DNA from: a bacterium
GTDB taxonomy: Bacteria > Hinthialibacterota > Hinthialibacteria > Hinthialibacterales > Hinthialibacteraceae
Direction of reading: 5' to 3'
Assembly: GCA_963662285.2 (NCBI GenBank)
Contig: CAXXMV010000008.1
Coordinates: 832,001 to 896,000, forward strand
Length of the DNA: 64,000 nt
The position numbers were made by a program, and so were the translations under genes. The notes beneath the pieces are model-generated. The model did no database searches. It was not told the DNA's origin and saw only the letters and a list, made by a program, of their open reading frames with translations. Of the stretch, positions 8,341-58,390 are shown piece after piece. Position 1 is the stretch's first letter. Each line of letters opens with the position of its first letter.

Positions 8341-8425
8341 CGACCACCCTTGTAAATGAATATCCATACAAAAAACCTCCAGATTTATCATAGTATCGAT
8401 TTTATTAAAAATATTAAAAATATCC

Positions 8426-8483
8426 TTGACAAATATCCTGAGTTATAGTTATATACTTAATTCCTATAGGAATGATCGGATAT
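8426..8483 (+). promoter_or_regulatory. Putative promoter (TTGACA) and Rrf2 operator
   Basis: TTGACA at 8426-8431 with an ambiguous -10. A 25-bp pseudo-palindrome AATTCCTATAGGAATGATCGGATAT (8459-8483) has symmetric CC/GG, as in IscR-type sites. Confidence 0.4.
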
Positions 8484-8506
8484 AGAAAATATTTTAGGTA
8501 TAAGTC

Positions 8507-8959: not shown

Positions 8960-9028
8960 AATCTTATTAATTAAAAACCTTGTAGAAATGATTTATAAAA
9001 CAATTCATAAAAATCAAGGAGAATAAGG

Positions 9029-9976
9029 ATGAGTAGCACGGTATTGCTCCACTTGGTAACCTATGCGGCCATCATTGCCTTTCTATTAGCCGTGGTAATC
9101 CGATTTATTCGAATCAACTCAATGCCCATGCATTTACGTTGGGAACTGTATCCAGTCGCTCATGAGCCAGGAGCAAAAGCCAGGTACGGCGGTTCTCATT
9201 TAGAGGAAATCGATTGGTGGACCAAACCAAAAGAATCCTCCAGAATCAATGAGATGCGCTATATGATCCCGGAAATGCTCTTTCTGGTCGCCTTGTTCGA
9301 GCATAACCGCAAATTATGGCTGCGTTCTTTTCCATTTCATTTTGGACTTTATTTATTATCAGGAACCATCGGTTTTATCTTTTTTGGAGCTATTCTGGAA
9401 CTTGCAGGCATCCCGGTTACCAATGGTGAAAATGCGTCAATCATCGGTATGGGCGTATTCTACCTTACCCAGATCATCGGCGTAATCGGCATGACATTGG
9501 CCGCTTTCGGCAGCATCGGTCTACTGCATATACGACTGACTGATCCCGACTTGAGCGATTACACCTCGGCCAACGCCATTTTCAACCTGGTATTTTTTAT
9601 AGTTGTTCTAATGATCGCCTGGATTACCTTTATCCTTATTGATCCCACATACCAACTGACCAGAGCCTACATACAAAGTCTCGTCACCTTTAACTTCGCC
9701 GCTCCTGTGGAGAGTGCATTGTTAGGGATTGAAATCCTTTTATCCGTCCTGTTAATCGCCTACATCCCCATGACTCACATGTCCCACTTTTTCTTGAAGT
9801 GGTTCACTTATCATAAAATCCGTTGGGATGATGAAGGTTACACTCCAGGCAGTAAATTAGAAAAGAAGATATTCCAACAGGTTCAATATCCGGTTACCTG
9901 GTCCGCCCCACACTTAAAAGCCGATGGTAAAAAGAATTGGCTGGATATCGCCACTGAGGAGATTGATGAAAAATGA
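9029..9976 (+). CDS. NarI/DsrM-like membrane cytochrome b
   Basis: Multiple TM helices; heme-ligand-type His in FPFHFG and THMSHF; HLRWELYPVAHE motif; overlaps the next gene (ATGA). Confidence 0.8.
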   Translation: MSSTVLLHLVTYAAIIAFLLAVVIRFIRINSMPMHLRWELYPVAHEPGAKARYGGSHLEEIDWWTKPKESSRINEMRYMIPEMLFLVALFEHNRKLWLRSFPFHFGLYLLSGTIGFIFFGAILELAGIPVTNGENASIIGMGVFYLTQIIGVIGMTLAAFGSIGLLHIRLTDPDLSDYTSANAIFNLVFFIVVLMIAWITFILIDPTYQLTRAYIQSLVTFNFAAPVESALLGIEILLSVLLIAYIPMTHMSHFFLKWFTYHKIRWDDEGYTPGSKLEKKIFQQVQYPVTWSAPHLKADGKKNWLDIATEEIDEK

Positions 9977-11595: not shown

Positions 11596-12170
11596 GTAGG
11601 GTGGGTCACGCCTCACCGACCCACCAAAACCACCTACAAGTGGGCTGGGCGCCAAGGGCAAGACAGCTGGGTGCCAAGGGCAGTGTCCTTCCTGCCCTTG
11701 ATGCGATCACCTAATCAATTACTAGTGTATTTGTGGTGTCTGGGGCGCCAAGGGCAAGAGCGCATTGCGCTCAGCCCTTGATCAAACCACCTACGCGTAG
11801 GGTGGGCTAAAAGCGATAGCGTAGCCCACCAAAAACAACTGTAGATAAACATTCCTCTCCCAAGATTGGGAGAGGTCAGGAGAGGGTTGATAACAATCAC
11901 CCATGTAATTGAATTTACAATGATGTTAGAAACAATTCGGGTGCCAAGGGCAGTGTCCTTCCTGCCCTTGATGCGATCACCTAATCAATTACTAGTGTAT
12001 TTGTGGTGTCTGGGGCGCCAAGGGCAAGAGCGCATTGCGCTCAACCCTTGATTAAACCACCGACGAGTAGGGTGGGCTAAAAGCGATAGCGTAGCCCACC
12101 AAAAACAACTGTAGATAAACATTCCTCTCCCAAGATTGGGAGAGGTCAGGAGAGGGTTGATAACAATAAC
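11596..12170. repeat. REP mosaic containing a direct duplication of about 230 bp (period 270 bp)
   Basis: The block at about 11669-11898 recurs at about 11939-12168; each copy has hairpins A-A-B-E. Confidence 0.9.
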
Positions 12171-15202: not shown

Positions 15203-15616
15203 ATGGAAAACAACCTGAATAAAAAATCAATCCTGATCATTGATGATGAGCCGGATATAGTAACGTACCTGGAGACTCTCTTCTCTGATAACGGATACGA
15301 CGCAATGACCGCATCTAATGGCGTTGAAGCCATGGAAAAAGTCCAAAGCAAAATACCGGATTTAATCACTCTTGATATTTCAATGCCGGAAAAATCAGGC
15401 ATCAGATTCTACCGTGAATTGAAAGACGATCCTCAACTCTCCGGCATACCGGTATTGGTCATAACCGGCGTCACCGGATACGGAGGCGATGCGGATAGTT
15501 TTGAACAATTCCTGGCTTCCCGCAAACAAGTTCCTCCTCCGGACGGTTTTATCGGAAAACCTCTGGAAGACGCCAACGCCCTCTTGGCGAAGATCAGTGA
15601 ATTGATCAATCCATAA
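15203..15616 (+). CDS. Single-domain response regulator
   Basis: ILIIDDE, LDISMP and GKP motifs. Confidence 0.9.
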   Translation: MENNLNKKSILIIDDEPDIVTYLETLFSDNGYDAMTASNGVEAMEKVQSKIPDLITLDISMPEKSGIRFYRELKDDPQLSGIPVLVITGVTGYGGDADSFEQFLASRKQVPPPDGFIGKPLEDANALLAKISELINP

Positions 15617-15735
15617 AGGCTGCGCGGTTCCTTTCAGAGGTTGTTATGCATTCGTTATGAGAAAGCGGGAGCTTAAATTACGGCAAAATTCTATTTTTAC
15701 TGGTTTAACCCAGCTCAAGAGATAGAATAATATGT

Positions 15736-16182
15736 ATGAGTGAAACATACCGTATTTCCATATCGTGGTTAAGCGTATTATTGATCCTACTCTTAGGGTT
15801 CGAGAATACTATTGCTTTTTCCACTCCTCAAACATTGGATTGCTCAACCATTTCCGCTGTACCAGACTGCCCGGAAGAGGTAACTTGTTGTTGCTCTGAA
15901 GATGAAAGAACCGGATCATGTTGTGATGCACCAGACCATACCAGCGTTTCCAATATTGAATCATGCCATTGCGGGATATTCTCAAACTCTAACCAGCCTG
16001 CTACTCCAACCAGATATTACTCAGAATTTAACTCTTACGAAAAGAAAAATAACAATAATTGCTCTGTTAATTCATATACTTATAATGGGATATTTCATCA
16101 AAACACCATCTGCATTTCCTGTTCCAGTCTCATAAATACATGCCCTTCACCATGCATAGCGAAAGTGCGCCTGCGTCTTTAG
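15736..16182 (+). CDS. Small Cys-rich exported hypothetical protein heading the cus operon
   Basis: Hydrophobic N-terminus; CCC, CC and CHC clusters. Such proteins often sit upstream of metal efflux operons. Confidence 0.5.
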   Translation: MSETYRISISWLSVLLILLLGFENTIAFSTPQTLDCSTISAVPDCPEEVTCCCSEDERTGSCCDAPDHTSVSNIESCHCGIFSNSNQPATPTRYYSEFNSYEKKNNNNCSVNSYTYNGIFHQNTICISCSSLINTCPSPCIAKVRLRL

Positions 16183-16290: not shown

Positions 16291-16527
16291 ATGTTGCCCA
16301 AAACCATTGTTTTTCTATTACTAATTTTCACGTTCTCAGGACAGTCAGCCTTTCCTGATGACAAAATTCATTTGCCGGATTTAATCAAAACCGCTGTCGA
16401 AAGCAATACCGATATCCAATCAGCCAAAGCGCAATGGACGCAAACCATCGAGCGCTACCCCCAGGCGACCTCCCTGGATGATCCCATATTAAATTTCTCA
16501 TATTACATAGAAAACGTAGAAACCCGC
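16291..16527 (+). pseudogene. N-terminal fragment of a TolC/CusC outer-membrane efflux protein, truncated at a REP insertion
   Basis: Signal peptide, then L.DLIKTAVESN.DI..A...PQATSLDDP...VETR; the reading frame then enters family A repeat DNA. Confidence 0.75.
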
Positions 16528-16670
16528 CGGGCGCCAAGGGCAAGACCGCAACGCGGTCAGCCCTTGATCAAGCCACCCAATATAATCCAAAGTGAAACGG
16601 CAAGAATAGGCGCCAAGCCGGGCGCCGGGCGCCAAGGGCAGTGTATTTTCAGCCCTTGATCAAACCACCC
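16528..16670. repeat. Two family A hairpins in place of the body of tolC/cusC
   Basis: CGGGCGCCAAGGGCAAGACCGCAACGCGGTCAGCCCTTGATC and GGGCGCCAAGGGCAGTGTATTTTCAGCCCTTGATC. Confidence 0.85.
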
Positions 16671-16712
16671 AATATTAACCGGATTTAATCAATTAAATTA
16701 AGGAGATCAATC

Positions 16713-18632
16713 ATGAATCAAATCAATAGATCGTTTCTATCAAAATACTCAGGCGTCCTGATAGGAATCATTATAGGATTCGCCCTTGCGCTGTTTTTTA
16801 TCCCACACCCCGCCGATCAACATTCAATCAACAATATTGAAAAACCAGCGGAGGAAGCGCCCACTCTATGGACCTGCTCCATGCATCCCAATGTTCAAAA
16901 AACCGAACCGGGAGACTGCCCCTTTTGCGGCATGGATTTAATCCCCCTGATCTCTTCAGGAGATGACGGAGAACCACGGCAATTGACCATGTCCCCGGTC
17001 GCCATGAAACTGGCGGAAATCCAAACCACCGCGGTGCGCCGTGAATTCATCGAACGAGAACTGCGCCTGTCCGGCAAAGTGGCTTACGACGAGACCCGGT
17101 TGAAATATATCACCGCCTGGTTTCCGGGTCGCCTGGACCGCCTGTTCGTCGATTATACCGGAACCCCTGTACAAAAAGGCGACCACCTGGTTGAGATATA
17201 CAGCCCTGCAATAACCACCGATCAGGAAGCCTTGCTCCAAGCGCTGCAAGCCAGCAAAACGCTGGCCAACTCTACCGTGTCACAGGTTCGCGCCAGCCGC
17301 ACTGATGTTCTTGACCGGGCGCGGGAGAGATTGCGCCTGCTGGGATTAACCGCTTAACAAATTCAGGAAATTGAAACTCGCGGTTCTCCTTCAGAACGGA
17401 TCACCTTTTACTCTCCCATCAACGGCGTCGTGATCCACAAGAACACCCTGCAGGGAGATTACGTCCAAACCGGAACCCGGATTTACACCATCGCCGATTT
17501 AAGCCAGGTCTGGTTGAAAATGGATGCCTACGAGTCGGATCTAACATGGATTCATTATGGACAGCAAGTTGAATTCACCACCATCTCTTACCCCGGCCAA
17601 GTCTTCCACGGCCGGATATCGTTCATCGATCCATTCTTAAATGAACTAACCAGGACAGTTAAAGTCTGGGTTAACGTCGCTAACCCGAACGGCAAACTGA
17701 AACCGGATATGTTCATCAATGCAGTAGTTCGCGCCAAAGTTAACGCAAACGGAGAATTCCTCGATCAGCAATTGGCAGGCAAATGGATCAGCCCAATGCA
17801 CCCCGAAATAATCAAAGACCAACCGGGAACCTGTGATATCTGCGGCATGCCGCTGGTTAAAGCTGAAAGCCTCGGCTACGTCGACGCGGATAAAAATATA
17901 GAACCGCCCCTCATCATCCCCGGCACGGCCCCGCTCATCACCGGAACGCGGGCCGTGGTTTATGTAAAAATTCCCGATGCGGAAAAACCTACATTCGAGG
18001 GACGCGAAATCATATTAGGAGCAAGGCTTAAAGACCATTACATTGTTAAGTCAGGTCTGGAAGAAGGCGACCAGGTCGTCGTCAAAGGCAATTTCAAAAT
18101 TGACGGCGCCCTGCAGATTCAAGCCAAACCCAGCATGATGAGTCCAGCGGATCAAAAACCAAGTGACGCGCCCGAACCTTCAGAAGCCATGCCTGCCAGT
18201 CCTGTAAGCCCTGAAGCGGCGCCGCAAATCCTTCCATCTACAAGCATCCCGGATTTCCTCTCAGCCTATAAATCAATATGGACGGCGTTGTATAGCGATG
18301 ATCTACCCAAAGCCCGACAAGGTTCCAAAGCATGGGTGGATGCCGCCAAAAAGCATTCCTTAAAAAACATAGAGATGATCGGTCACAAAGTGATGCATGC
18401 CTCCGATATTGAAATTGCCCGGCAGGCCTTCGGGCAAATGTCCGGCCTGCTTATTGCTGCAATAGAAAAGCATGGCTCGCAATCCGGCGTCCTCTATGCC
18501 GCCCACTGCCCTATGGCTTTTGATAACAAGGGCGCCCGATGGCTGCAATGGGATCAAAAAATCCTTAATCCCTACTTCGGAGACGCCATGCTGGAATGCG
18601 GCGCCATAACCAAAACATTCGCCGCCAAATAG
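16713..18632 (+). pseudogene. cusB: CusB-type RND adaptor (heavy-metal-binding domains, C-terminal DUF3347-like domain) with an in-frame stop
   Basis: WTCSMHP, CDICGMPL and HCPMAFDNKGA.W motifs. TAA at 17355-17357 in GLTA*QIQEIE; both ORF pieces are in the same frame. Confidence 0.85.
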
Positions 18633-18651
18633 AACGAAAGAGCGCTGAATC

Positions 18652-20965
18652 ATGTTAGATAAACTAATCAGGTTTTGCCTTGAAAATAAAATCGTCGTAG
18701 CGCTGATGGTGGTTTTCCTGGTTCTCTGGGGAATCATGGTGGCGCCCTTCGACTGGAATATCTCCGCCATTCGCCCATCTGCTGTTCTCCACCAAAAAAA
18801 TTCGCAGCCATGTCATGCGCTACCTGCTCTACGCGCTGCTCTGCATCATCGGCGTCATCGCCGCATTCACCGTTGCATGGTGGATCGGGATCATTATCCT
18901 GGGCTTTGCGTTCTATCACTTTATCTCCCAACGAATGCCAGATCATGCAAAAAAGCGTATGCCCCTGGCGCTCAACCTAATCGCTCTACTGGTTATTATA
19001 ACGGTATTGAGCAATCACTGGCTGCCGCTTGGACCGGGTAAAGGAGTAACCCGCAACTGGATTTTCGTAGTAGGATTATTAGGCGGCATCCTGGCGCTGA
19101 TCCAATTGTTCCAATATTTCTACGCCCCCATCCTGCGTTGGTGCCTGGATCATAAATTATTATTTCTAACCATTCCAACCATGCTTATTCTCTGGGGCGC
19201 GGTTATCTGGCTGGGATTCGACAAACTATTCGGATTCCTGCCCCGCTTCGTCATGACTGCGCCGATCATCTCCAGCATCAGCCATGCCTTCCCCGGCCTG
19301 GGCAAAGAGTTCATGCCCGATCTGGATGAAGGCTCCTATCTCTACATGCCCACCACCATGCCCCATGCCTCCATCGGCGAAGCCATGGATGTATTGCAGA
19401 AGTTGGATATGGCCATCAACGCCATCCCCGAAGTCGAACAGGTAGTCGGCAAAATAGGCCGCGTCGAGAGTCCCCTTGACCCCGCTCCCATCTCTATGGT
19501 CGAGACCATAATTAATTACAAATCCGAATACATAGTCGATCAGGATGGTCATTGGCTGCGCTTCAAATACAACCGCGATACAGCCCAATTTGAACGCGAT
19601 GAGCATAATGAACTGATACCCGACGCCAACGGCATGCCCTTCCGCCAGTGGCGCGATGAGATCAAGTCTCCCGGTGATATATGGGATGCCATTGTAAAAG
19701 CCGCCCAAATTCCGGGAACCACTTCCGCCCCCAAACTGCAACCCATCGCCGCCCGCATCGTCATGCTGCAAAGCGGCATGCGCGCCCCTATGGGCATTAA
19801 AATAAAAGGCCCCGATCTGCAAACCATCGAAAATGTCGGCTTGCAGATCGAACAATTTTTGCAAGAGGTTCCATCAGTTAAAGCCGAAGCCGTCTTCGCC
19901 GACCGCATCGTAGGCAAACCGTATCTGGAAATCGACATAGACCGCGACGCCATCGCCCGCTATGGAATCACCATCCGTCAGATTCAGGATGTTATCGAGA
20001 TTGCCATCGGCGGTCGCAGCATCACCACCACTATCGAAGGACGTGAGAGATACTCAGTTCGCGTCCGTTACCTGCGCGAGCTGCGCGACTCCATCGAATC
20101 CCTGGGATCAATCCTGGTTCCTTCGCCTACCGGCGCCCAGATTCCATTACGGGAACTATCCGAAACCAAATACGTCCGGGGGCCGCAAGTAATTAAAAGC
20201 GAAGACACATTCCTGATTGGCTATGTTCTCTTTGACAAGAAGGATGGTTACACAGAGGTTGATACAGTTGAGCAAGCCCAGGCTTACTTAAAACAAAAAC
20301 AACAATCCGGCGAATTAATCATCCCGTCAGGCGTGAGTTATACCTTCGCGGGCAACTACCAAAACCAGCTGCGCTCCGAAAAACGTCTGTGCGTTGTGCT
20401 GCCCCTGGCCTTATTCGTAATTTTCATGATCCTCTATTTTCAATTCAAAGACGCGCCGACCACCCTGATTGTATTTTCGGGAATCCTGGTCGCCTGGGCT
20501 GGCGGTTTTCAAATGCTCTGGCTCTACTCGCAGGACTGGTTCCTCAACTTCAACATTTTCGGAGAAAACATGCGCAACCTCTTCCAGGTTCAGCCCTTCA
20601 ACCTGAGCGTCGCCGTCTGGGTAGGATTCCTCGCCCTTTTCGGCATCGCCACCGATGACGGCGTAATCATCACCACCTACTTAAATCAGTCCTTCTCCAA
20701 CAATCGGCCAACATCGATCCAGGCCATACGCCAGGCCACTCTCGAAGCTGGCAGACGCCGCATCCGTCCCTGCCTGATGACCGTGACCACAACCATCCTG
20801 GCCTTGATACCAGTGCTAACCTCCAAAGGACGCGGCGCCGACATCATGATCCCCATGGCCATCCCCTCATTCGGAGGAATGACGGTCGTCCTCATCACCG
20901 TCTTCGTCGTACCAGTGCTGTACTGCGCCCTTCAAGAAATGCGATTCAAGACTGTTCCAAAATGA
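18652..20965 (+). pseudogene. cusA: CusA/CzcA RND permease with a large internal deletion and frameshift near 18763
   Basis: The N-terminus MLDKLIRFCLENK...APFDWNIS jumps to the mid-protein sequence PPFAHLLF in another frame. The C-terminal half has GKEFMPDLDEG, GIATDDG and RIRPCLMT. Confidence 0.85.
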
Positions 20966-28341: not shown

Positions 28342-29331
28342 GTGGCAACAGTTCTACACCAATTTCGTAATGAAGAAGAGCAGGAACAAATAAAACTCTT
28401 TTATTTAGAACGACTAATGGATCAATTAGATTCAGGATGCGCCTATATGGCTAGAGCGACGTTTCTTCGCTATAGAGCGCATTTTGAGTCCATCCTCCAA
28501 TCCAGTCATATAAATCGATTAGAGCAAACCACTCAACAGCAGAGCGTCTGGAATCATAATGATGAATTAATTTTCCTGGATCGCATGAAAAATGCATGGC
28601 TCTTCGGAGAATATAAAACCGTGCATGATTGCGGACATGAAATTCTGCTTCATCAGCGCGATAAAAAAGATGCCAATTTAGAATTGATCGAACAGGTTCA
28701 AAACCTGCTCGCATCTAATAATGCTTATTACATTGAACCCGACAGCATCAACATCAACACCTTCGTCAACGCCAAGGTGGCCTTTGTGGTGGGACAACGG
28801 AAATCACAGAGTAATCCGGGAAAACTGCTGAATGGCAATCCCGGCTTTTACCTGAAGGATGCATGCGGCATGCGATACCGCTGCTTCATTAAACAGGTAA
28901 ATGATATTGAGGAAGGCGCTGAATTAAAACTGAAGATCACTAATATACCTGGCCTGGTCTTTGCCACTCTGAACACCCAGGAACCGATAATCTATCTGGA
29001 ACCGCGCACAATACCGGGTGAGACCATAGAAATCGAAATCGGCAGCCTGTCCCACACCGAGAACAGTTTCACCTTTAGGCATCATAGTTACGATGGTTTT
29101 TTATGGTTTAAGCGGCACGGCGTCAACAAGAGAATTTTTAATAAAGCCACCCTGCGTCCGGGAGACCGGATCACCGCCCGCGTACTATATACCTCGGAAG
29201 AAGAAAAACGGTCTTCTTCCGGCAACATCACCCGTTTGGGTATTATTAAAGCTATACCGCTGAGGCGGGTCGTTCCGGTATCGACCCTGATGGTTGATCA
29301 AGAAAACGGCGTTGCCAAAGCTCTAAACTGA
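28342..29331 (+). CDS. Hypothetical protein with a helical N-terminus and possible OB/S1-like C-terminal domains
   Basis: 329-aa ORF with RBS GAGGTG; beta-rich segments such as LRPGDRITARVL. Confidence 0.6.
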   Translation: MATVLHQFRNEEEQEQIKLFYLERLMDQLDSGCAYMARATFLRYRAHFESILQSSHINRLEQTTQQQSVWNHNDELIFLDRMKNAWLFGEYKTVHDCGHEILLHQRDKKDANLELIEQVQNLLASNNAYYIEPDSININTFVNAKVAFVVGQRKSQSNPGKLLNGNPGFYLKDACGMRYRCFIKQVNDIEEGAELKLKITNIPGLVFATLNTQEPIIYLEPRTIPGETIEIEIGSLSHTENSFTFRHHSYDGFLWFKRHGVNKRIFNKATLRPGDRITARVLYTSEEEKRSSSGNITRLGIIKAIPLRRVVPVSTLMVDQENGVAKALN

Positions 29332-31195
29332 GGAGAATCCATAACTGGTTGTTATAGTCTCTTCTCCCGTCTTGATGATCCCTTAATACCTGATCAACCG
29401 ACCGGGGGTTAAAAAGCCCCCGGCGGTTGACGGTAGAGACGGAACAGACATCTTCTATCATCTCCCGCAAATCGCCCCTGAACCATTCACCCACCGGAAT
29501 CTCAAAACCATGCTTGCGCCGGTCCAGAATCTCATCGGGCAGCGCATCGCGAAACGCTTCTTTTAGAATCCATTTAGTCGTCTTGCCATGCAATTTCGCA
29601 TTGCTTGGCAGCGAACATCCCCACTCAACAAACTTGTGATCCAGAAACGGCACCCGCACTTCCAGCGAATGCAGCATCGACATCCGGTCAACCTTGCGCA
29701 GCATATCCGCCGCCAGGTTATGACGCAAATCCACCCACAACATCCGGTTCAGATCATCAAAGCGAGGCATCTCATCAAACAACTCTCTCCGGTAATTCCA
29801 GGGAGCATTAAAATCGATTTCGTTTAATATTTCCCGCCTCAACAACGGTCCGCGAATCTCATCTTCAAAATGGATCGCCCATTTCAAATGCCGTTCAAAC
29901 GGATCAGGGTCAAGGCCACGGAAGAACTTCTTGATCTGACGCAGATAATCCATCACCACATTGGCGTGCGACTCCGGCATCCGGTCAGCCACCGAACGGC
30001 CAAACCAACCCAATATTGGAGCGGGAATAAACGAACAGAATTTCCTGAAATACTCCGCCTGATATTTACGGTATCCCGCGAACAATTCATCGCCCCCGTC
30101 TCCCGAAAGCACAACTTTCACCTGCTCCGCCGCCAGTTTGGATACGAAATAAACCGGCAGGCTCGATGAATCGGCCAGCGGCTCATCCAGTTGCCAGGTG
30201 ACGTCATCCAGCGCATTGAGCAGGTCATTGGGCGATAGATAATGTTCGTAGTGATCAGTCCCGAAACGATCAGATACCAAGCGGGCGTGGGGCGTTTCAT
30301 CGAACAAACCCAATCCTTTATACCCGATGGAAAATGTCTTGAAATCCGACCCGATCTCATCATGCATCAGGGCGGTGAGAACGCTCGAATCGATGCCGCC
30401 GGAAAGAAACGCTCCAACCGGGACATCCGCCAGTAGATGCTGGCGCACCACATCCCGCAAACGTTGCGCCAGTTCTTTGGGATGAGCCTCTTCATCAAGC
30501 GTCTCGATTGATCCGATAGATTCTTCAGGCCGCCAATAACCATGAATATTTATAACGCCATTCTCGAAAACCAGCATCTCGCCGGGGCGTAACTGCCTGA
30601 TTCCCTTAAACATGGTATAAGGAGCGGGAGCGGAGAGATAAGCCAGATATAGGTTTAACGCTTCATGGTCAATTTCGCGTGGAACATCCGCATCCAGCAG
30701 GATTGATTTAATCTCAGAACCAAAGCGCAGGGCCTTGCCGTCGAAATAATAGTACAGTGGTTTAATGCCCAACCGGTCACGTGCCAGAATCAACCTCCGG
30801 CGCTGCGCATCCCACAAGGATACAGCGAACATGCCCTGGGCGTGTTCCAGAAAAGAGTCGCCGTATTCGCGGTAAAGATGCAGAAAACTCTCAGTATCAG
30901 CGTGAGTGCGGTAGGTATATCCTTTGGTTTGCAACTGCTGCTTGATTGAGGGATGGTTATACAACTCGCCGTTATAAGCGATCCAAAAGCGCTGATCTTC
31001 AGTCGACATAGGCATATGCCCGTCGCTCAACCCGATGATCGACAGACGGCGCGATCCCAGACCAACGCCGTCAGCAATATAATGACCTTCATCATCCGGT
31101 CCGCGATGCTGAATAATCCGCGTCATGGATTCTAAAAGCCCACGATTCACTTTAACTTGAGAATCTGTATAAGCAATTCCACATATTCCACACAT
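29252..31195 (-). CDS. asnB: Asparagine synthase (glutamine-hydrolysing) family amidotransferase
   Basis: MCGICG, HRGPD, RRLSII, FLSGGIDSS, SGDGGDELFAGY and EVRVPFLD motifs. Confidence 0.95.
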   Translation of the reverse strand: MCGICGIAYTDSQVKVNRGLLESMTRIIQHRGPDDEGHYIADGVGLGSRRLSIIGLSDGHMPMSTEDQRFWIAYNGELYNHPSIKQQLQTKGYTYRTHADTESFLHLYREYGDSFLEHAQGMFAVSLWDAQRRRLILARDRLGIKPLYYYFDGKALRFGSEIKSILLDADVPREIDHEALNLYLAYLSAPAPYTMFKGIRQLRPGEMLVFENGVINIHGYWRPEESIGSIETLDEEAHPKELAQRLRDVVRQHLLADVPVGAFLSGGIDSSVLTALMHDEIGSDFKTFSIGYKGLGLFDETPHARLVSDRFGTDHYEHYLSPNDLLNALDDVTWQLDEPLADSSSLPVYFVSKLAAEQVKVVLSGDGGDELFAGYRKYQAEYFRKFCSFIPAPILGWFGRSVADRMPESHANVVMDYLRQIKKFFRGLDPDPFERHLKWAIHFEDEIRGPLLRREILNEIDFNAPWNYRRELFDEMPRFDDLNRMLWVDLRHNLAADMLRKVDRMSMLHSLEVRVPFLDHKFVEWGCSLPSNAKLHGKTTKWILKEAFRDALPDEILDRRKHGFEIPVGEWFRGDLREMIEDVCSVSTVNRRGLFNPRSVDQVLRDHQDGRRDYNNQLWILLSLELWQRRFLDQPSGSIPERPASAV

Positions 31196-31211
31196 AGGCG
31201 TTTATTCACCG

Positions 31212-32046
31212 TAGGGTGCGCCCCTAGTGGGCGCCCGAAATTCCCAAGACCAGCAGGTAGCACATGGTGGGCAAAAAGCGAAGTAACACGTAGGGTGTGC
31301 TAAAAGCGAAGCGTAGCCCACCAAAGCCACCTACATCTGAACCATCTTAAATGCAACAGTTTTATTTCAAAAGAGATAGATCAACATCAATCCTCAGAAC
31401 ATAAACAAATCACTCCAAAAATACACCCCCGAAAACCAACCACCAACACCTAATTAATCTCAAAAAAATCCTTGAATCATCACGACGCGCCTGATATTCC
31501 GGGCACCCATGAAGGACGCCCCTACGGGTTTATCATGTGTTTTTTTGTTGGTAAAAATTATTGGATTAACGTAGGTGATCGCATCAAGGGCTGACCGCGT
31601 TGCGGTCTTGCCCTTGGCACCCGCGCCCGCCTGATTAATCCAAAAAAATCCTTGAATCATCACGACGCGCCTGATATTCCGGGCGCCCATGAAGGACGCC
31701 CCTACGGGTTTATCATGTGTTTTTTTTGTTGGTAAAGATCATTGGATTACCATAGGTATAGTCAAGGGCAGAAAGGACACTGCCCTTGGCACCCATCCCG
31801 ATTTTGGTTACGCTTTGTTTTTTTATATTCATCGTTAATTATCATATTGGGCGCCCATGAAGGGCGCCCCTACGGGTTTATCATGTGTTTTTTTTGTTGG
31901 TAAAAGTTATTGGATTACCATAGGTGTAGTCAAGGGCAGAAAGGACACTGCCCTTGGCACCCATCCCGATTTTGGTTACGCTTTGTTTTTTTTATATTCA
32001 TCGTTAATTATCATATTGGGCGCCCATGAAGGACGCCCCTACGGGT
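31212..32046. repeat. Large REP mosaic (families A, B, C) with internal tandem duplications
   Basis: Duplicated blocks with periods of about 180 and about 167 bp; shares modules in inverted orientation with 34387-34590. Confidence 0.9.
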
Positions 32047-32075
32047 TTTTTTAACGATTTTTCCAATGTTATTGT

Positions 32076-33665
32076 TCAGCGTTTTTTGCTGAACATTATT
32101 ATTGGGGGCGGGGTTGAGGCTGGTTCTGTGGCCGGGCCGAATTGTACGGCGTAGATTGACCAGGCCAGGGCGTAAATTGTGTCGTCGTGTTGGCCTGCGG
32201 GGTGGCCGAAGGAGATTTGGCCGTTGGGGTTTCTGCGGTATTCGAAGGTTTGCAATTCCTCGAAAAATGTTTGGGGGAGATTGCCCGGTAATTCCAGCAA
32301 TTTTTGGCGTAACAGGCGGTGCAGCTCGTGAAATGCAGTTCTCTGGGCTGAGGCGGTCGGGTTGATTAATTGGGTGTTGATTTTTAATGACTCGCAATAT
32401 TCCGCCAAGCCCTTGCCTTGATAATTTTCCACTCCGGCGTGTTCGACGCCGTATTTATCCACTAAATCATTGACTGTTTTGCGCAGTTCGTTATCTGATG
32501 CGCGTTCCAGGACTCTCATATCCAATAATCTGAAGCGCGGTTCGGAATTTATGTCGTCGTCGGGCCACCATCTTGCTACTACGGCCAGGGCGTTGCGGTC
32601 GTGGGTCTGATCGTAGGACAGCGCCAGGTCGACTCCAAGCGAGCAGACCGCCTGGGGTGGAATTTTGTTCTGGTTGGGCGGGATGGTGTTGGCTTCGATC
32701 AAGCCGTTGAACATGCCGTAAGCGCCGTCGACCCATTCGCCCATCACTTCGGCGCGGAATTCCAACTCGTTTTTGGATTGGCGCAGGCGTTCGATCTCTT
32801 CGGCGGTTATGTTGGGATTGGCGGTGCTGGGGCATTGGATTACGGCGATATTTTTACCGTTTTCTTTGGCTTGGGCGGTGTAGCCGTAGACCCATGAGCC
32901 GGTGGTTGAGGGCGATGAGACGATGTAGAGGCGGCCTTTTTTTTCGGCGCTGGTGATCATGGCGTACTCGACCGCCTTGCGGATTTCGTCGCCATGCTCC
33001 ATGAAGCAGGCTTCGTCGAGGAAAATGGATATGCCCGATTCCTGGCCGTTGGTTTTGGGGTGGTAGCCGCGAATGGTGTCTGGATTGGCGGGCAGCAGTT
33101 TGATGGTGGAATCGTTTTTGAAGACCACCTGCTCGTTGGAAATGCTTCTGACCCATTGGTAGACGGGCGATTCGCGGATCAGTTCGATGATCCGGGCGCC
33201 GAAATCGGAGCTCATGCGTTGGCCGGACGAGACTACCAGTGCGATGTGGCGTGCGTTGATTATGGCGTAGAAAATGGCGGTTACGCAGGCGGCGATTGAT
33301 TTTCCCGCGCCGCGTCCCGCGATCATCAGGTTGATCCTTTTTTGGGAGAGGCAGAATTTTTTCTGGTGTTCATAGAGGTCGATGTTGAGCGCTTCGCTGG
33401 AAAATTTTACCGGGTCTTCGCTCCAGGAGTCGGGGATTTCGAATTTTGCGTCGGGTGCAGCTGCGGGTTGTTTTAACATGAACCTTTGCAGGCTCAAGTA
33501 GGTGTTGGTGCATTGAAAGGCCAGCCGGTATTGCGATTGCACCTTGGGATCGGAGATATCATGTTTCTGGTTGATTAATTCATCGGTGATATTATCAAAC
33601 AAGATTTCATGTGTTTTTGACATATTTTCTAAAACTGAATTGTTAGACATTTTCTTATCCCGCAT
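32076..33665 (-). CDS. Terminase large subunit-like protein (Terminase_6-type ATPase plus RNase H-fold nuclease), orphan
   Basis: Q motif LYEHQ; Walker A GRGAGKS; TIRG; Walker B IFLDEA; coupling motif VSSP; FRAEVMGEW; nuclease motifs GVDLA and HDD. Confidence 0.85.
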   Translation of the reverse strand: MRDKKMSNNSVLENMSKTHEILFDNITDELINQKHDISDPKVQSQYRLAFQCTNTYLSLQRFMLKQPAAAPDAKFEIPDSWSEDPVKFSSEALNIDLYEHQKKFCLSQKRINLMIAGRGAGKSIAACVTAIFYAIINARHIALVVSSGQRMSSDFGARIIELIRESPVYQWVRSISNEQVVFKNDSTIKLLPANPDTIRGYHPKTNGQESGISIFLDEACFMEHGDEIRKAVEYAMITSAEKKGRLYIVSSPSTTGSWVYGYTAQAKENGKNIAVIQCPSTANPNITAEEIERLRQSKNELEFRAEVMGEWVDGAYGMFNGLIEANTIPPNQNKIPPQAVCSLGVDLALSYDQTHDRNALAVVARWWPDDDINSEPRFRLLDMRVLERASDNELRKTVNDLVDKYGVEHAGVENYQGKGLAEYCESLKINTQLINPTASAQRTAFHELHRLLRQKLLELPGNLPQTFFEELQTFEYRRNPNGQISFGHPAGQHDDTIYALAWSIYAVQFGPATEPASTPPPIIMFSKKR

Positions 33666-33819
33666 TCGTTTTGGTTTTTAAAAAAAGCCCTCTACCAATA
33701 GGGAGGGTTTCCGCAAAAAAAAGGCTCTAAAGTGCATTTTTTGAAATAAGTTGGGTTTATTCAGGGGGTTAGGGGGATTAATTGATAATGAGGAGCATTG
33801 TTGATTATGGCGGGCATTC

Positions 33820-34603
33820 ATCATCGGGCAACCATAAAGGATTGCCCCTACGGATTATTATCGTTGGTGGTTTTTTTTGTCTGAATCTGGATTTTCTGGA
33901 TTGAAGGATGGGTAGGATTTTTTTTTAATGGGGTGATTATGTTCGAGGATTACTTTACATAATAAGTGGCAGCATCAAGGGCTGACCGCGTTGCGGTCTT
34001 GCCCTTGGCACCCGTATTTTTAGAAATAAGTGGTGTTTTTTAGTGTTTTGAGTATTTTTTTGTGATTAGGTTGTTGTTATCAACCCTCACCTAGCCTCTC
34101 CCAATCTTGGGAGAGGGATTCTGTTACTCGTTGGTGGGTTTTTTTGTCTGAATCTGGATTTTCTGGATTGAAGGATGGGTAGGATTTTTTTTTAATGGGG
34201 TGATTATGTTCGAGGATTACTTTACATAATAAGTGGCAGCATCAAGGGCTGACCGCGTTGCGGTCTTGCCCTTGGCACCCGCCCTTGGCACCCGCGCTTG
34301 GCGCCCGTCGCATAAACCGAAGGTGGAATCATCATCGGGCAACCATGAAGGATTGCCCCTACGGGTTATTATCGTTGGTGGTTTTTGTAGGGGCGCTTTT
34401 TATAGGCGCCCGGAATATCAGGCGCGTCGTGATGATTCAAGGATTTTTTTGGATTAATTAGGTGTTGGTGGTTGGTTTTCGGGGGTGGATTTTTGGTGGG
34501 TCGGTAAGGCGCGACCCACCCTACTGCCCTTGACTACACCTACGTTAATCCAATAACTTTTACCAACAAAAAAACACCGGATAACCAACTCCCCTCTCCC
34601 ACC
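33820..34603. repeat. Large REP mosaic (families A, B, C, D, E, F) with a duplicated block of about 140 bp
   Basis: About 33873-34013 recurs at about 34140-34280, and a related block occurs at about 47635-47745. Confidence 0.9.
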
Positions 34604-36110
34604 TGTACAGACCGGGTAGATGGGTAACACATGTTCGGGGACATGGGTTACAGTTTTTTATCAAAACCGGGATTTATCCCAGGTTATTGTTTGAGTTTTT
34701 TTTTAGGCATCTAGAGATGCTCAGGATAATTGGTTGGCTTAGAGGGAGGAGGTGAATATTTCACCTCCTGCATTATCCCTCGCACCTCGGATCGGCTATC
34801 CCTGGCGGGTTGCACTCCTGCAGCGCCCGCTTCCGTTTCGCCCAACCAATTTCTATTGTGACGCCTTTTTCTGGATTGCCAAGTTATCTTCTTTGATTTC
34901 ATTCAAACGCAGATCGAGCGTCTTGATTTTTTGTCGGCAAAAATATACGTCCATCATCCCATCGGTCATAGCGGGTTTCAAGGCAACCGGGCATCCTACC
35001 AGGGCGCGGCTCACCCGGTAATCTTCACCACGGTACGCCACCCGACCTCCTTGTTGCACCTTCCTGATAATGCTGCCCGGCGCGTACTCGATATCCGGCA
35101 AACTTCCCGGATAAACAAAAGGACTGGACGTATAATGGTTAGCCGGGACATCCATATCCAGGGCTTCGTGAGGACGCTCAAAATTGTATTCATAACGCCA
35201 CTCATCAAACCGCCTTTGGCAATATTCCAAATCCACAAACGATTCCCTTATCAGCAATTCTTGCTTAAAGGTCCGGTGAAATCGCTCGACCTTGCCTTGG
35301 GTTTGCGGATGGTAGGGGCGACCGTGATACACGCGAATACCCAATCGTATCAGCCATATTGTCAATCTGGTGTATTCGCAGGTTTTGCATCCTCCCCACG
35401 GACTTCCGTTATCCATCAACATCGCCCGAGGCATACCATACATCCTGAACACGCTTTCCAGGGAGTCTTGCACGGTTTCCCTTTGCTGATTGGCGCACGA
35501 AAATAATCCGGGAACAAAGCGCGTGCAATCATCCAGAATGCTGAGCGGATAACAGCGTGCTTTGAGCGTGGGAAAATCTCCTTTGAAATCCATTTGCCAC
35601 AATTCGTTGGGCGTATCTTTTTCAAAACGCTTATAGGCTTTGTGCTTGTGACTTTCCTTTTCATCCAGCAATCCCAGTCGGCGTAACACGGCAGTAATAG
35701 TGCTGGCGCTAGGAACATTTTCGTATCCCAATTGAATCAGACGAGAGCGAATTTTGCGTCCTCCCCATCCTTTTTCGCGATTTTCTGTAATGGCTTGCTC
35801 GATAGACTTATCTGTTTGATGAGGGCAAGTATTGGGTTTTTTGGAACGGTCTTGGAGATTTTCGACTCCTCCTTCTTTGTACCGTTTGATCCATTTGTAA
35901 CCCGTCTTACGGCTGATATCAAACCGTTTACATAATTGGCTGATGTTGCTTTCTTCTTGCTGGCTCAACAATACGAATTCTTTTCTCAGAGACATAAGGT
36001 CCACCTCGTTCCAGGGCATATTCTTCGCCTCCTTTCAAGGCTAGAATACACTCAGAAAATGTGTTACCTATGTCCCCGAACACCTGTTACCCATGTCCCA
36101 GGCCTTTACA
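34604..36110 (-). mobile_element. IS481-family insertion sequence, 1507 bp, with 5-bp target duplication CCACC
   Basis: TGT...ACA ends with long imperfect inverted repeats (TGTACAGACC..GGTAACA..TGTTCGGGGACAT); CCACC at 34599-34603 and 36111-36115. Confidence 0.93.
34853..36019 (-). CDS. IS481 family DDE transposase
   Basis: MPW start, HTH, PNELWQMDFKG, DNGSPW, HPQTQGKVERFHRT and RPHEAL motifs. Confidence 0.95.
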   Translation of the reverse strand: MPWNEVDLMSLRKEFVLLSQQEESNISQLCKRFDISRKTGYKWIKRYKEGGVENLQDRSKKPNTCPHQTDKSIEQAITENREKGWGGRKIRSRLIQLGYENVPSASTITAVLRRLGLLDEKESHKHKAYKRFEKDTPNELWQMDFKGDFPTLKARCYPLSILDDCTRFVPGLFSCANQQRETVQDSLESVFRMYGMPRAMLMDNGSPWGGCKTCEYTRLTIWLIRLGIRVYHGRPYHPQTQGKVERFHRTFKQELLIRESFVDLEYCQRRFDEWRYEYNFERPHEALDMDVPANHYTSSPFVYPGSLPDIEYAPGSIIRKVQQGGRVAYRGEDYRVSRALVGCPVALKPAMTDGMMDVYFCRQKIKTLDLRLNEIKEDNLAIQKKASQ

Positions 36111-36230: not shown

Positions 36231-37679
36231 TCAGGAATTTTCCGATGTAGGAACATTAAGATGAACCAGGTTGCCTTCGGCTTCAACTACTTTTTTCTCA
36301 AAGGTTACGTTCTTATTGCCTTCCCATTTCAGGGGATATTTACCGCTGAAGCAGGCGGTGCAGAATTTATCATGCGTTCCATCGGCCGCATTGAGCAGAC
36401 CATTGATTGACAGATAGTAGACCGAATCCACCCTAAGATGTTTCTTTATCTCTTCAAGCGTATGGGTGGCGCCTATAAGTTTGCCGCGTTCAGGCGTATC
36501 AATGCCGTAATAACATGGCTCAATCCACACCGGTGAAGCGATGCGTAGATGAATTTCAGCCGCGCCCGCTTTGCGGAGCATCTTGACGATTTTCCGCATT
36601 GTCGTACCGCGTACGATAGAATCGTCTACTATGATTACCCGCTTGCCTTCCAACACAGACCGGACTGGATTGTACTTTATCTTGGCGCCGAAATCTCTGA
36701 TGCTTTGGCTCGGTTCGATAAAGGTCCGCCCGATGTAATGGCTGCGAATGATGCCTTGTTGAAAGGGGATTTTTGATTCCAGCGAATATCCAATAGCCGA
36801 GCAAATGCTTGAATCCGGAATGGGAACCACTACATCTCCTTCAGTGGGACATTCGCGTGATAATACCCGGCCTAAATTCTCACGGGTGGGATGCACCCGC
36901 TGGCCGAATACATAACTGTCAGGACGGGAAAAATATACTAATTCAAATATACACTGTGCGATTTTAGATTCTTTGCCAAAGAAGCGGCTTTCGATCCGGT
37001 CTTTATGTATTATGAGCATCTCGCCAGGTTCCACTGTCCTGATGTATTCCGCTTCAATGATATCCAGGGCGCTGGTTTCTGAACAGAAAATGTATGAATC
37101 GCCTTTTTTGCCTAGCGAGAGCGGACGAATCCCCAGCGGATCGCGTAATCCGATCACGTATTGATCATTCATGATCACCATGGAATACGCTCCCCTCAGT
37201 TTTTTGAGTGATTCTTCCAGGGCTTGGATAAAATCAGAATGCTTGGAACGCGCCAGTAAGTGAATCAGAATTTCACTATCTGTAGTAGTGCGGAAAATGG
37301 AGCCTTCCGATTCCAATTCGCTGCGTAATTCCAGGGTGTTTATCAGGTTGCCATTATGAGCTACTGAAACCCAGCCGCGCTTGTATTCGCATAAAAGGGG
37401 TTGCGCGTTGGTCAGATCGCTTGCTCCTGTTGTGGAATAGCGTACATGCCCGATAGCACGGTCGCCTCGAAGGTTGTCCAGGGTTTCTCCTTCGAAAATA
37501 TCCGCTACCAGTCCCATCCCCACATGAGATGAGGGATGTTCTCCAGCAGCTGTAACAATCCCGGCGCTTTCCTGACCCCGGTGTTGCAAGGTATACAGAC
37601 CAAGGTAGGTCAAGTGGGAAGCTTCAGCATGACCAGAGATAGCAAATACTCCACACGCATCACGAATTTCATCTGACAT
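36231..37679 (-). CDS. purF: Amidophosphoribosyltransferase
   Basis: DACGVF, LQHRGQESAG, GHVRYST, VDDSIVRGTT and CYYGIDTP motifs. Confidence 0.98.
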   Translation of the reverse strand: MSDEIRDACGVFAISGHAEASHLTYLGLYTLQHRGQESAGIVTAAGEHPSSHVGMGLVADIFEGETLDNLRGDRAIGHVRYSTTGASDLTNAQPLLCEYKRGWVSVAHNGNLINTLELRSELESEGSIFRTTTDSEILIHLLARSKHSDFIQALEESLKKLRGAYSMVIMNDQYVIGLRDPLGIRPLSLGKKGDSYIFCSETSALDIIEAEYIRTVEPGEMLIIHKDRIESRFFGKESKIAQCIFELVYFSRPDSYVFGQRVHPTRENLGRVLSRECPTEGDVVVPIPDSSICSAIGYSLESKIPFQQGIIRSHYIGRTFIEPSQSIRDFGAKIKYNPVRSVLEGKRVIIVDDSIVRGTTMRKIVKMLRKAGAAEIHLRIASPVWIEPCYYGIDTPERGKLIGATHTLEEIKKHLRVDSVYYLSINGLLNAADGTHDKFCTACFSGKYPLKWEGNKNVTFEKKVVEAEGNLVHLNVPTSENS

Positions 37680-39244: not shown

Positions 39245-39574
39245 ATGGAAACGGATGCGATGATAGGTAAAATGGTCGAAATCCATTTGCTCAATGGCAA
39301 ATGTTATCTGGGAAAAGTGACTCAAAAAGATCGTGAAGGCATTATTCTGTATTGTATTCCAGTAAAAGCGCTGGAAAGCGTGGCGCCCGGAAGCGGGGCT
39401 ATTGAGCAGATGAGCGAAATGCTGCATACCGTATTCTTCGCCTGGCAGCAGGTGGAGTATGTCGATATAGGCGGCGAGCCGGTTGGTTTTGATTCACTCT
39501 ATGCCAGCTGGTTCCATGAAAAATCGCTGGATGACTTTTTTGAAAAACCATTTTCTACTGAACGGGATCGGTAG
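39245..39574 (+). CDS. Hypothetical protein, possible Sm/LSm-like fold
   Basis: IGKMVEIHLLNGKCYLGKVTQKD.EGIIL resembles the Sm1 motif. Confidence 0.55.
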   Translation: METDAMIGKMVEIHLLNGKCYLGKVTQKDREGIILYCIPVKALESVAPGSGAIEQMSEMLHTVFFAWQQVEYVDIGGEPVGFDSLYASWFHEKSLDDFFEKPFSTERDR

Positions 39575-40045
39575 GGGCGTTCTTGATGGGTATGTCTTTT
39601 AGTTAAGGCTTGCCCGACCAGTTGTTTTCCAAGTGAGAATCATCGCCCCAGTAGGGGATGGTGGTAAAATCAAGATTCATGGAATCCGACAGCAAACCGT
39701 TTTGCCGCCAAATAGCATGCAGCGTATTTCACCCTATGGTTGGTGGTTTGATCAAGGGCTGACCGCATTGCGGTCTTGCCCTTGGCACCCAGTATTGCGG
39801 TCTTGCCCTTGGCGCCCAGCCAGCTGGTTCCATGAAAAATCACTGGATGACTTTTTTGAAAAACCATTTACTACTGAACGGGACCGGTAGGGCGTCTTTC
39901 ATGGCATGTCTTTTAGTTAAAGAATTTCATTCTATCGTTGGTGGTTTGATCAAGGGCTGACCGCATTGCGGTCTTGCCCTTGGCACCCAGCTGACCGCAT
40001 TGCGGTCTTGCCCTTGGCGCCCAGTATTGCGGTCTTGCCCTTGGC
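39503..40045. repeat. Duplicated gene 3' end (39503-39606 and 39819-39920) interleaved with stuttered family A hairpins
   Basis: Direct comparison: about 100 bp, with 3 mismatches in the coding part. Confidence 0.9.
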
Positions 40046-40070
40046 GCCCCATGTGGGCGCCCGAATTACT

Positions 40071-42169: not shown

Positions 42170-42470
42170 GGCTTGATCATGGGCTGGACACATTGCAGTC
42201 TTGCCCTTGGCGTCCGCATTTGCAAAGGTGATTTTTATCAATCCTCACCTAGCCTTTCCCAATCTTGGGAGAGGGATATTTCCCCCATCGTAGGGTGGAT
42301 TTTTATCGGGCAACCATGAAGGATTGCCCCTACTTTGGGGTGGATTCTTATTATATTCGGGTGGTTGTTATCAACCCTCACCTAGCCTCTCCCAATCTTG
42401 GGAGAGGGATTCTGTGAACCGTAGGTGATCGCATCAAGGGCTGAGCGCATTGCGCTTTTGCCCTTGGCGC
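42170..42470. repeat. REP mosaic (families A, E, D, E, A)
   Basis: The same hairpin modules as in the other intergenic clusters. Confidence 0.85.
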
Positions 42471-47633: not shown

Positions 47634-47634
47634 T

Positions 47635-48145
47635 TTTTTTGTCTGAATCTGGATGGGCAGGATTGAAGGATGGGCAGGATTTATTTTTAATGGGGTAATT
47701 ATATTCGGGGATTAATCGACATAATAAGTGGCAGCATCAAGGGCAGAAAATACACTGCCCTTGGCACCCATGCCGTCTTGCCCTTGGCGCCCGCAATTTG
47801 CAAAGGTGATATTTATCAACCCTCACCTAACCTCTCCCAATCTTGGGAGAGGGATTTTGTGAATCATAGGTGATCGCATCAAGGGCTGAGCGCATTGCGC
47901 TCTTGCCCTTGGCACCCGCCTTTAACTCTGCAATATCCTAAGTGATCTCATCAAGGGTAGAAAATACACTACTCTTGGCGCCCATGACCGTCGTAGGTGT
48001 AGTCAAGGGTAGAAAGGACACTACCCTTGGCACCCGTCGCATCTACCGTAGGTGGAATCATAATCGGGCAACCATGAAGGATTGCCCCTACTTTTTATTG
48101 TAGGTGGATTTTTGGTGGGTCGATGAGGCCGACCCACCCTACGCG
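47635..48145. repeat. REP mosaic (several family A variants plus D, E and B)
   Basis: Includes both GGGCA..TGCCC and GGGTA..TACCC stem variants. Confidence 0.88.
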
Positions 48146-54012: not shown

Positions 54013-54420
54013 ATCCGATGGGACACGCTGGCGCTTTGTCTCATCCTACGCGTTACGAAAATCGGGCAACCACAAGGGATTGCCCCTACGGCTGGGCGCC
54101 AAGGGCAAGACCGCAATGCGGTCAGCCCTTGATGCGATAACCTACGATTCCACCAAGTTCCCCTGTCCCCAGAGCCGGGTGCCAAAGGCAGTGTTCTTTC
54201 TGCCCTTGATTAAGTCCACCATTACACCAAAACGACTCAATTGGTTCAAAAAAATCCCCCTAATTAACACAAAATCCTTGAAGTATCTCGACGCACCTGA
54301 TATTCCGGGCTCCCACGAGAGCAATGTCATTAAGATAAGGAATTTCACCTTATCGTTGGTGGTTTGATCAAGGGCTGACCGCAATGCGGTCTTGCCCTTG
54401 GCACCCGCTTTGTCCCATCC
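54013..54420. repeat. REP mosaic (G, D, A, A) plus an orphan CAATGTCATTAAG MITE end
   Basis: The same modules as elsewhere; CAATGTCATTAAGATAAGG at about 54322. Confidence 0.85.
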
Positions 54421-57266: not shown

Positions 57267-57330
57267 GTTTAAGATAACTTTTCCGAATGTCATTATGTTA
57301 AGGAAGTTCTGCCTATCTTTAGCGGCTTTA

Positions 57331-58340: not shown

Positions 58341-58390
58341 TGTATACACAGTTTTTTTGTATGACAAAAACGAAATAATATAACTAGTTA

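Follow-up and report, generated by a model that had tools for sequence, protein, structure and literature searches.

Prophage calling routinely relies on large terminases, which are viral hallmark genes. What, then, is a gene of this family doing by itself in a bacterial chromosome? The question is raised by a 64,000-nucleotide stretch of contig CAXXMV010000008.1 (assembly GCA_963662285.2, positions 832,001 to 896,000; referred to below as the window) from a bacterium of the Hinthialibacterota, in which an open reading frame (ORF) for a large terminase subunit (TerL) is framed by inverted repeats. A preliminary description of this locus offered two alternatives: a domesticated stand-alone DNA motor or nuclease, or cargo within a ~3.1-kb cassette delimited by repetitive extragenic palindromic (REP) sequences. 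The first alternative fits the data presented below, as the gene is solitary, keeps its invariant residues and is under purifying selection; the second is not supported. With a confidence slightly above even, we read the gene as a host-retained, stand-alone TerL-type ATP-driven DNA translocase-endonuclease with an N-terminal module and a regulatory element of its own. Fold and chemistry are those already known from TerL, and the novelty lies in how the gene lives in the genome, in its N-terminal module and in its cis element.

The TerL protein and its clade

The ORF is intact and encodes 529 amino acids (aa), and its translation holds the large-terminase motifs LYEHQ, GRGAGKS, IFLDEA, VSSP, GVDLA and HDD, as the preliminary description had reported. 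A second in-frame ATG at codon 6 (33650) gives a 524-aa form, identical to entry P0001 of the protein collection. The profile and structure searches that had been proposed as a check place the protein among the large terminases. Pfam Terminase_6N matches residues 114-321 (4.7e-16), and the PHROG family phrog_2 (‘terminase large subunit’) matches at 3e-38; Pfam Terminase_6C remained below threshold for the window protein and was seen only in relatives. An NCBIfam scan gave only termin_lrg_T7, at 25 bits versus a cut-off of 150, and a search of the ESM Atlas returned generic terminase clusters only. The AlphaFold model, built on 30 homologues, has a mean predicted local distance difference test (pLDDT) score of 84.7. 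In a fold search it matched the complete large-terminase structures of D6E, T4 (gp17) and Sf6 (E ~1e-18 to 1e-17), and it also fits structures of the separate ATPase (T4 gp17/P74-26) and nuclease (5m1f, 5tge) domains, those of P74-26 and G20c among them. The family profile aligns with the G20c/P74-26 TerL nuclease, HDD included, with E ~6e-6 to 8e-6.

The alignment of 30 clade sequences contains 70 invariant columns, among them Q101, G117-R118-G119, R150, D217-E218, S251-P252, D346, E413 and H493-D494-D495, and the window protein keeps every invariant residue. Walker A K122 is nearly invariant (at least 90% of the aligned sequences), and so is F525 in a conserved C-terminal tail with the consensus P-x-I-x-F. 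The functional labels of the invariant residues (adenine-binding Q101, Walker A and B, nuclease residues) are presumably the same as in other terminases. Both halves expected of the TerL family are present: an N-terminal ATPase domain of the additional strand, conserved glutamate (ASCE) type with Walker A carrying the P-loop arginine, Walker B and a coupling motif, and a C-terminal RNase H-like nuclease domain with an acidic metal-binding triad. This architecture is shared with the tailed-phage enzymes (T4 gp17; Thermus D6E, P74-26 and G20c; Sf6 gp2), down to the adenine-binding Q, the Walker A with arginine, the Walker B DE and the D/E/D nuclease triad with HDD. Unlike them, the window TerL is solitary, with no portal, small terminase or capsid gene nearby, and is at most 25% identical to any sequenced phage TerL; its clade further differs in an 80-aa helical N-terminal extension, a conserved 5′ element of its own and low internal divergence.

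On sequence comparison, the window TerL is a member of a compact and so far undescribed clade. A word-indexed search returned 48 other proteins with 45-76% identity to it, the three closest (P0002-P0004) reaching 68-76%. In an exhaustive HMMER scan of 1.84 billion representatives the clade scored 416-553 bits (46-58% identity), after which the score dropped to 232 bits (32%), and the full-length protein found at that level does not have the first ~80 residues. In 50,697 phage records, the top match reached 25% identity. A quick maximum-likelihood tree, comprising 47 of the 49 clade proteins (P0001 included; two proteins shorter than 470 aa were left out) and eight outgroups, recovered the clade as monophyletic, with an approximate likelihood-ratio support (SH-aLRT) of 99 and a stem of 0.97. 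The branches inside the clade are short, and those of the outgroups span 2-4 substitutions per site.

The named sources of clade proteins are Hinthialibacter (2) and Omnitrophota (1). The fetched loci come from metagenome-assembled genomes (MAGs) labelled Omnitrophota or ‘bacterium’, one of them being SURF_12. SURF_12 is described as a member of OLB16, that is, Candidatus Hinthialibacterota, a phylum formerly placed in Omnitrophota (PMC9324843); the word ‘terminase’ is absent from that text. The MnmG protein of the window has 65-80% identity to a set of proteins that, where named, carry the labels Hinthialibacter or Omnitrophota/Omnitrophica, and identity falls to 58% beyond this set; the labels suggest that the window belongs to the same phylum. 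The accessible portions of the literature on terminases in Omnitrophota or Hinthialibacter and on orphan or domesticated terminases describe neither this clade nor solitary terminases conserved in these bacteria.

The N-terminal extension of about 80 aa, likewise pointed out in the preliminary description, can be aligned throughout the clade (residues 1-80), and the nearest proteins outside the clade align only from query residue 78-88. A two-copy prediction for self-association of residues 1-76 scored 0.02 versus a mark of 0.42, which is evidence neither way. A monophyletic subclade of seven proteins has about 100 extra N-terminal residues before the two-helix extension; this extra domain occupies the first ~100 codons of the genes at related loci L011, L013, L014 and L016 (proteins P0042-P0049). 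It was modelled as helix-strand-helix-helix-strand-strand with a pLDDT of 78, and a fold search with it gave weak winged-helix matches (best E 9e-3, none at E up to 0.001). Taken together, the extra domain and the two-helix extension resemble a small-terminase-like DNA-binding part fused to TerL.

Gene neighbourhood and the TerL unit

The surroundings of TerL were surveyed in the whole window and at 16 related loci from 14 MAGs, with up to 10 kb taken on each side of the gene. Apart from the insertion sequence (IS) transposase, none of the 43 window ORFs of at least 150 aa belongs to a Pfam portal, capsid, small-terminase or integrase family, as had been supposed before any database search, and Pfam also bore out asnB and IS481/purF as the neighbours. 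At the 16 loci, phage structural Pfam families were found in 0 of 124 ORFs within 5.5 kb of TerL. A further PHROG scan covered 50 ORFs without Pfam matches, namely six from the window and 44 of 51 from the related loci (seven antisense or duplicate ORFs were dropped); no match fell into the head, tail or connector categories, and five ORFs matched families of unknown function or pilin. The genes next to TerL in relatives are mostly housekeeping genes (ftsH, folP, rpsF-ssb-rpsR, hisF, der, glnA, tpiA, ispF, purM-like genes etc.).

When the 1,436 ORFs within 10 kb were compared all against all, no neighbour family proved common beyond the syntenic groups L013-L016 and L002-L003, and no conserved partner gene of TerL was found within this distance at the 16 loci. 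The homologues are thus consistently solitary, a point on which the preliminary description had called for a check, and neither in the window nor at the related loci does TerL form part of a viral or proviral morphogenesis module. Adjacency to a tRNA gene, a hallmark of integration, was not seen in the window; only L001 has a tRNA gene, ~400 nt upstream.

Directly upstream of TerL in the divergent loci stand TTAATCCCC, a few bases, TTCTGCGCC and then a short palindromic hairpin of the CTCTA..TAGAG type, often followed by a T-run. The resulting 5′ element of ~60 nt thus comprises an AATCCCC box, a TTCTGCGCC box and the hairpin. In the window, the TTAATCCCC box appears displaced, as if ~50 nt had been inserted (Table 1). 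A sequence-only model of the element (R1) gave 14 matches in 303,790 bases, all directly upstream of clade TerL genes. It found 14 of 16 testable TerL copies, that of L009 weakly; the copy at L015 is cut by the contig end. The window element scored 32.9 bits (E 1.2e-8). The hairpin was more stable than shuffled sequences in 9 of 12 cases, with stem sequences varying between loci, and in the window its energy lies below that of 98.7% of shuffles. RNAalifold found no consensus pairs in the alignment of the element because the register of the hairpin shifts by a bulge, and per-sequence folds were used instead. Rfam gave no matches at E up to 1 in window positions 31000-35000. Over the 304 kb the element precedes TerL genes only, which gives no hint of a shared regulon. 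Most simply, the palindromic element would be TerL’s own promoter/operator or attenuator.

Two comparisons reveal the edges of the unit. Loci L007 and L008, located on 582-kb and 396-kb contigs of one MAG, have only 1,705 nt in common (97.8% identity), running from TTTTAATCCCCC to 6 nt past the stop codon, and their surroundings are unrelated. Between L002 and L003, homology extends from ATTAATCCCC as far as the stop codon; with respect to a conserved VIT1-GT9 block, the unit has opposite orientations in the two loci. The visible edges in relatives are, therefore, a 5′ box ~40-75 nt before the start codon and the stop codon itself, and not outlying repeats. As far as aligned loci can tell, the TerL unit is the 5′ element plus the ORF, with nothing else around it conserved, and the two comparisons show, at the level of sequence, that it was copied or flipped. 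Each of the 14 MAGs holds one or two TerL copies. Neither terminal inverted repeats nor target-site duplications are visible at the four junctions of these locus pairs, which thus do not display the ends of a typical insertion sequence or transposon; elements lacking both end features stay compatible with the data.

Table 1. Positions of the TerL gene, its domains and the adjoining features in the window.
Feature	Position	Strand	Description and evidence
asnB	29252-31195	-	Window neighbour of TerL; Pfam
TerL downstream spacer	31196-32075		3-4 tandem composite units of ~170-180 nt built from dispersed hairpin modules; 80% repeat-covered; not in the TerL unit
TerL-family ORF, intact	32076-33665	-	529 aa, ATG start; translation, Pfam, PHROG, alignment, AlphaFold model
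RNase H-like nuclease domain	32136-32663	-	~Residues 335-510; D346, E413, H493-D494-D495; invariant columns, profile alignment, fold matches
ATPase domain	32691-33425	-	~Residues 81-325; Q101, Walker A A116-S123 with R118, R150, Walker B D217-E218, S251-P252; invariant columns, Pfam, fold matches
N-terminal extension, clade-specific	33426-33665	-	Residues 1-80; two long helices in the model, 2-32 and 40-64
TerL upstream spacer	33666-34852		267-nt direct duplication (33858-34014, 34124-34281) plus dispersed hairpin modules; 60% repeat-covered
Conserved 5′ element	33679-33741	-	TGCGG box 33711-33715, palindromic hairpin 33688-33707, then T-run; ends 14 nt before ATG
TTAATCCCC box	33773-33781	-	Window copy 57 nt from the TGCGG box; 5-6 nt in relatives
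IS481-family transposase gene	34853-36019	-	rve, rve_3, HTH_32, LZ_Tnp_IS481; between TerL upstream spacer and purF; not in the TerL unit
purF	36231-37679	-	Window neighbour; Pfam

Several further features of the related loci were recorded. L002 carries a 362-nt tandem array of hairpin modules upstream of the TerL unit (8582-9663) and one more copy downstream (11650-11832); at L003, positions 5883-6056 upstream of the unit hold sequence related to the L002 array, though the neighbouring gene differs. Some repeat DNA may travel with the 5′ side of the unit. At L007, an ORF of the TnpB type (Cas12f1-like TNB domain, 1e-23; 8229-9551, minus strand) lies directly upstream of TerL, and none is present at L008. 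L014 has two DNA methylase genes (N6_N4_Mtase, Dam) and an HNH endonuclease gene within 6 kb of TerL (8187-9224, 15285-15914 and 16443-16991), and L013 shares the right-hand synteny of L014 with another left flank. The TerL of L016, a 4.8-kb contig binned with the MAG of L014, is 99.9% identical to that of L015 from another MAG and 93% identical to that of L014, with the same synteny; strain variation that was binned together is a likelier explanation than a second copy in the genome.

Inverted and dispersed repeats

The two inverted repeat modules noticed previously on either side of the gene are real. In the upstream spacer, arm 34387-34496 is an inverted match of 31415-31525 (111 nt, 92.8% identity, E 1e-41), and arm 34524-34584 is an inverted match of 31878-31939 (62 nt, 91.9%, E 1e-19). 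The diverged copy mentioned near 54255-54315 was also recovered, as a partial third copy at 54259-54315 (45-55 nt, 85-89%). A self-comparison of the window puts these pairs in their context. Repeats make up 5,935 of 15,842 intergenic bases (37%) versus 279 of 48,158 genic bases (0.6%), hairpin repeats are present in 18 of the 39 spacers, and most modules of both TerL flanks recur at many other spacers. The 111-nt pair scores 159 bits, the same as the pair 42368-42468 / 47813-47913, which brackets unrelated genes; one more pair, 2227-2334 / 4592-4699, brackets another ORF. Tandem and mosaic arrays of hairpin repeats were also seen in the spacers 57327-58347, 11669-12167, 39503-40049, 47634-48142 and 2227-2518, including a phased array at 57327-57899 with copies 96-98% alike. 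As L002 has a tandem hairpin array as well as the window, repeat-rich spacers are common in the lineage.

Whether homologues are consistently flanked by repeats was asked at the related loci, and the answer is negative. Inverted flanks were found at one of 15 testable loci, the window itself, and at none of the 14 others, four of which have direct repeats on both sides and ten none; the flanks of L012 and L015 are too short for this test. REP-associated tyrosine transposases (RAYTs) are Y1 transposases of the IS200/IS605 type. The window resembles REP/RAYT systems and miniature inverted-repeat transposable elements in that its spacers are packed with short hairpin repeats in both orientations, which flank a nuclease gene. 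It differs from REP/RAYT systems in that the enzyme is TerL, the repeats are genome-wide and the inverted flanks recur in no relative. Pfam scans detected no Y1 (RAYT) transposase in the window, and the combination that characterises REP/RAYT cassettes, a Y1 gene with cognate inverted REPs kept across genomes, was not found.

These observations bear on the proposal that TerL is cargo of a repeat-bounded cassette of ~3.1 kb. The two inverted pairs do flank the gene, and both modules are otherwise rare within these 64 kb. However, the flanks are mosaics of modules found in nearly half of the spacers, an equally scoring pair encloses other genes, the arrangement is confined to one of 15 testable loci and no RAYT accompanies it in the window. 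The proposal is largely refuted, and we give it hardly any weight. In sequence terms, the inverted repeats bracketing the window TerL are copies of the genome’s ubiquitous intergenic hairpin repeats and lie outside the TerL unit. Inverted repeats around a gene in a repeat-rich genome call for a genome-wide control.

Possible roles of the gene and other genes of the window

The preliminary description had named two findings that would speak against a domesticated gene: closest homologues lying in complete prophages, and relaxed selection. As far as the 10-kb flanks show, the homologues are not in prophages, and the dN/dS values of the TerL core are 0.12-0.24 (six pairs), which corresponds to purifying selection. 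Neighbouring genes in the same genome pairs gave 0.08 (ftsH), 0.11 (VIT1), 0.18 (GT9) and 0.22 (a dockerin protein). A decaying prophage remnant is suggested by a viral hallmark gene in the chromosome beside an IS element, but it is contradicted by the intact ORF with all clade-invariant residues, by these dN/dS values and by conservation as a solitary gene in 14 MAGs; its probability is close to negligible. A terminase match in these genomes is no evidence of a prophage.

Under the reading favoured here, the protein would combine ATP-driven translocation of double-strand DNA with endonuclease cleavage, activities predicted from its domains. Its own N-terminal module would find or hold the DNA in place of a separate small terminase: from the two-helix extension and the winged-helix-like domain, we infer a takeover of the small-terminase role in DNA recognition or assembly. 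The host lineage would have retained (exapted) the gene, which would not be a fragment of a decaying prophage. TerL persists alone across a candidate phylum, with its catalytic residues intact and under selection, which would make it a clear example of a packaging motor taken over for a non-viral task, or else a new selfish element. With both the protein and its putative DNA target defined, the reading lends itself to direct tests.

Several observations weigh against retention by the host as a stand-alone enzyme. The two 98%-identical copies at different sites of one MAG (L007 and L008) and the flip of the unit between L002 and L003 hint at mobility. In the same genome pairs, the TerL core has a lower dS than adjacent genes have (0.43 versus 0.70-0.93, 0.17 versus 0.26, and 0.71-0.75 versus 0.90-0.96, from L002/L003 and L013/L014/L015), which may reflect codon constraint, gene conversion or more recent exchange. 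The GC content at third codon positions (GC3) of TerL is the highest locally, or close to it, at six of the nine loci tested, the window among them. The R1 model finds no 5′ element at L001 and L011, the winged-helix assignment of the subclade domain is backed by the weak fold matches mentioned above, and the ORFs directly adjoining TerL at L001 and L012 match PHROG families of unknown function. The survey of structural genes of phages and gene transfer agents (GTAs) extended over 64 kb here and 10-kb flanks in relatives.

A part of these points is what would be expected of a selfish single-gene mobile cassette, in which TerL mobilises its own gene by homing or unconventional transposition, with the AATCCCC box and hairpin as the left end and the stop-codon region as the right end. 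The L007/L008 pair sharing nothing beyond the unit, the flipped L002/L003 unit with its sharp edges, a genomic context that differs in every non-sister locus, the high GC3 and the low dS all agree with it. Free-standing homing endonuclease genes and insertion sequences without terminal inverted repeats are likewise single-gene units with sharp edges, 5′ hairpin signals of their own and copies at unrelated sites. TerL is, however, a different class of enzyme, and the four junctions showed neither a preferred target site nor an empty one, and neither terminal repeats nor target duplications. There are also only one or two copies per MAG, the ftsH-folP position is stable in L013-L016 across dS ~0.7-0.96, gene conversion between old paralogues could produce sharp edges as well, and we know of no terminase that catalyses strand transfer. 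We regard such a cassette, the main rival to the favoured reading, as unlikely. Its more specific form, in which a TerL-derived ATPase-nuclease would recognise the AATCCCC box and hairpin, cut, and move or home its own 1.7-kb unit from box to stop codon as a new class of single-gene cassette, is doubtful; if true, it would set a precedent, no transposable or homing element being known so far whose only enzyme is a DNA-packaging motor.

In known GTAs, TerL lies beside the portal gene in a head-tail cluster. The window gene could nevertheless serve a dispersed GTA-like or tailocin-like system as its packaging enzyme, with capsid, portal and tail genes elsewhere in the chromosome. Like the TerL of RcGTA-type agents, it is a packaging enzyme of viral origin that a bacterial lineage has kept under purifying selection; the restriction to one lineage, the intact sequence motifs of both packaging activities and the conserved C-terminal tail are also in keeping with such a role. 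What separates it from the RcGTA type is the absence of any structural gene within 10 kb at the 16 loci or in the 64-kb window, and the 5′ element, fronting no other gene, gives no sign of a common regulon. GTA genomes can reportedly be multilocus (PMC5026251), and a system of this kind seems improbable to us rather than far-fetched. An anti-phage defence gene, for example a decoy or saboteur of phage packaging, would suit a single gene with a nuclease and a few defence-like neighbours (the methylases and HNH endonuclease at L014, a SocA/Panacea antitoxin at L004, TnpB at L007). This explanation is very improbable: no PADLOC-DB 2.0 family matched TerL at E up to 0.01, the neighbours are mostly housekeeping genes, and the clade, compact and conserved, lacks the patchiness typical of defence genes. 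The reading as a host-retained translocase-endonuclease is, accordingly, the one kept here as the working interpretation.

Two other regions of the window are worth recording. An ORF of a KAP-family P-loop NTPase (61463-62734, plus strand) has a GC content of 0.29 and a GC3 of 0.20, compared with a GC3 of 0.41-0.68 in the other 42 ORFs of at least 150 aa, and shows weak PADLOC matches to PDC-S20 (8.8e-7) and PifA (1.7e-5); it looks like a recent acquisition, possibly related to defence. The adjacent ORFs 16713-17357 and 17430-18632 (plus strand) each match one half of the HlyD_D23/CusB profile, the former positions 3-92 and the latter positions 120-213, and they are followed by an AcrB-like ORF (18815-20965, plus strand) of only 716 aa, which covers a partial stretch of a 1021-position profile. 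The region 16713-20965 may represent a split or truncated heavy-metal efflux operon.

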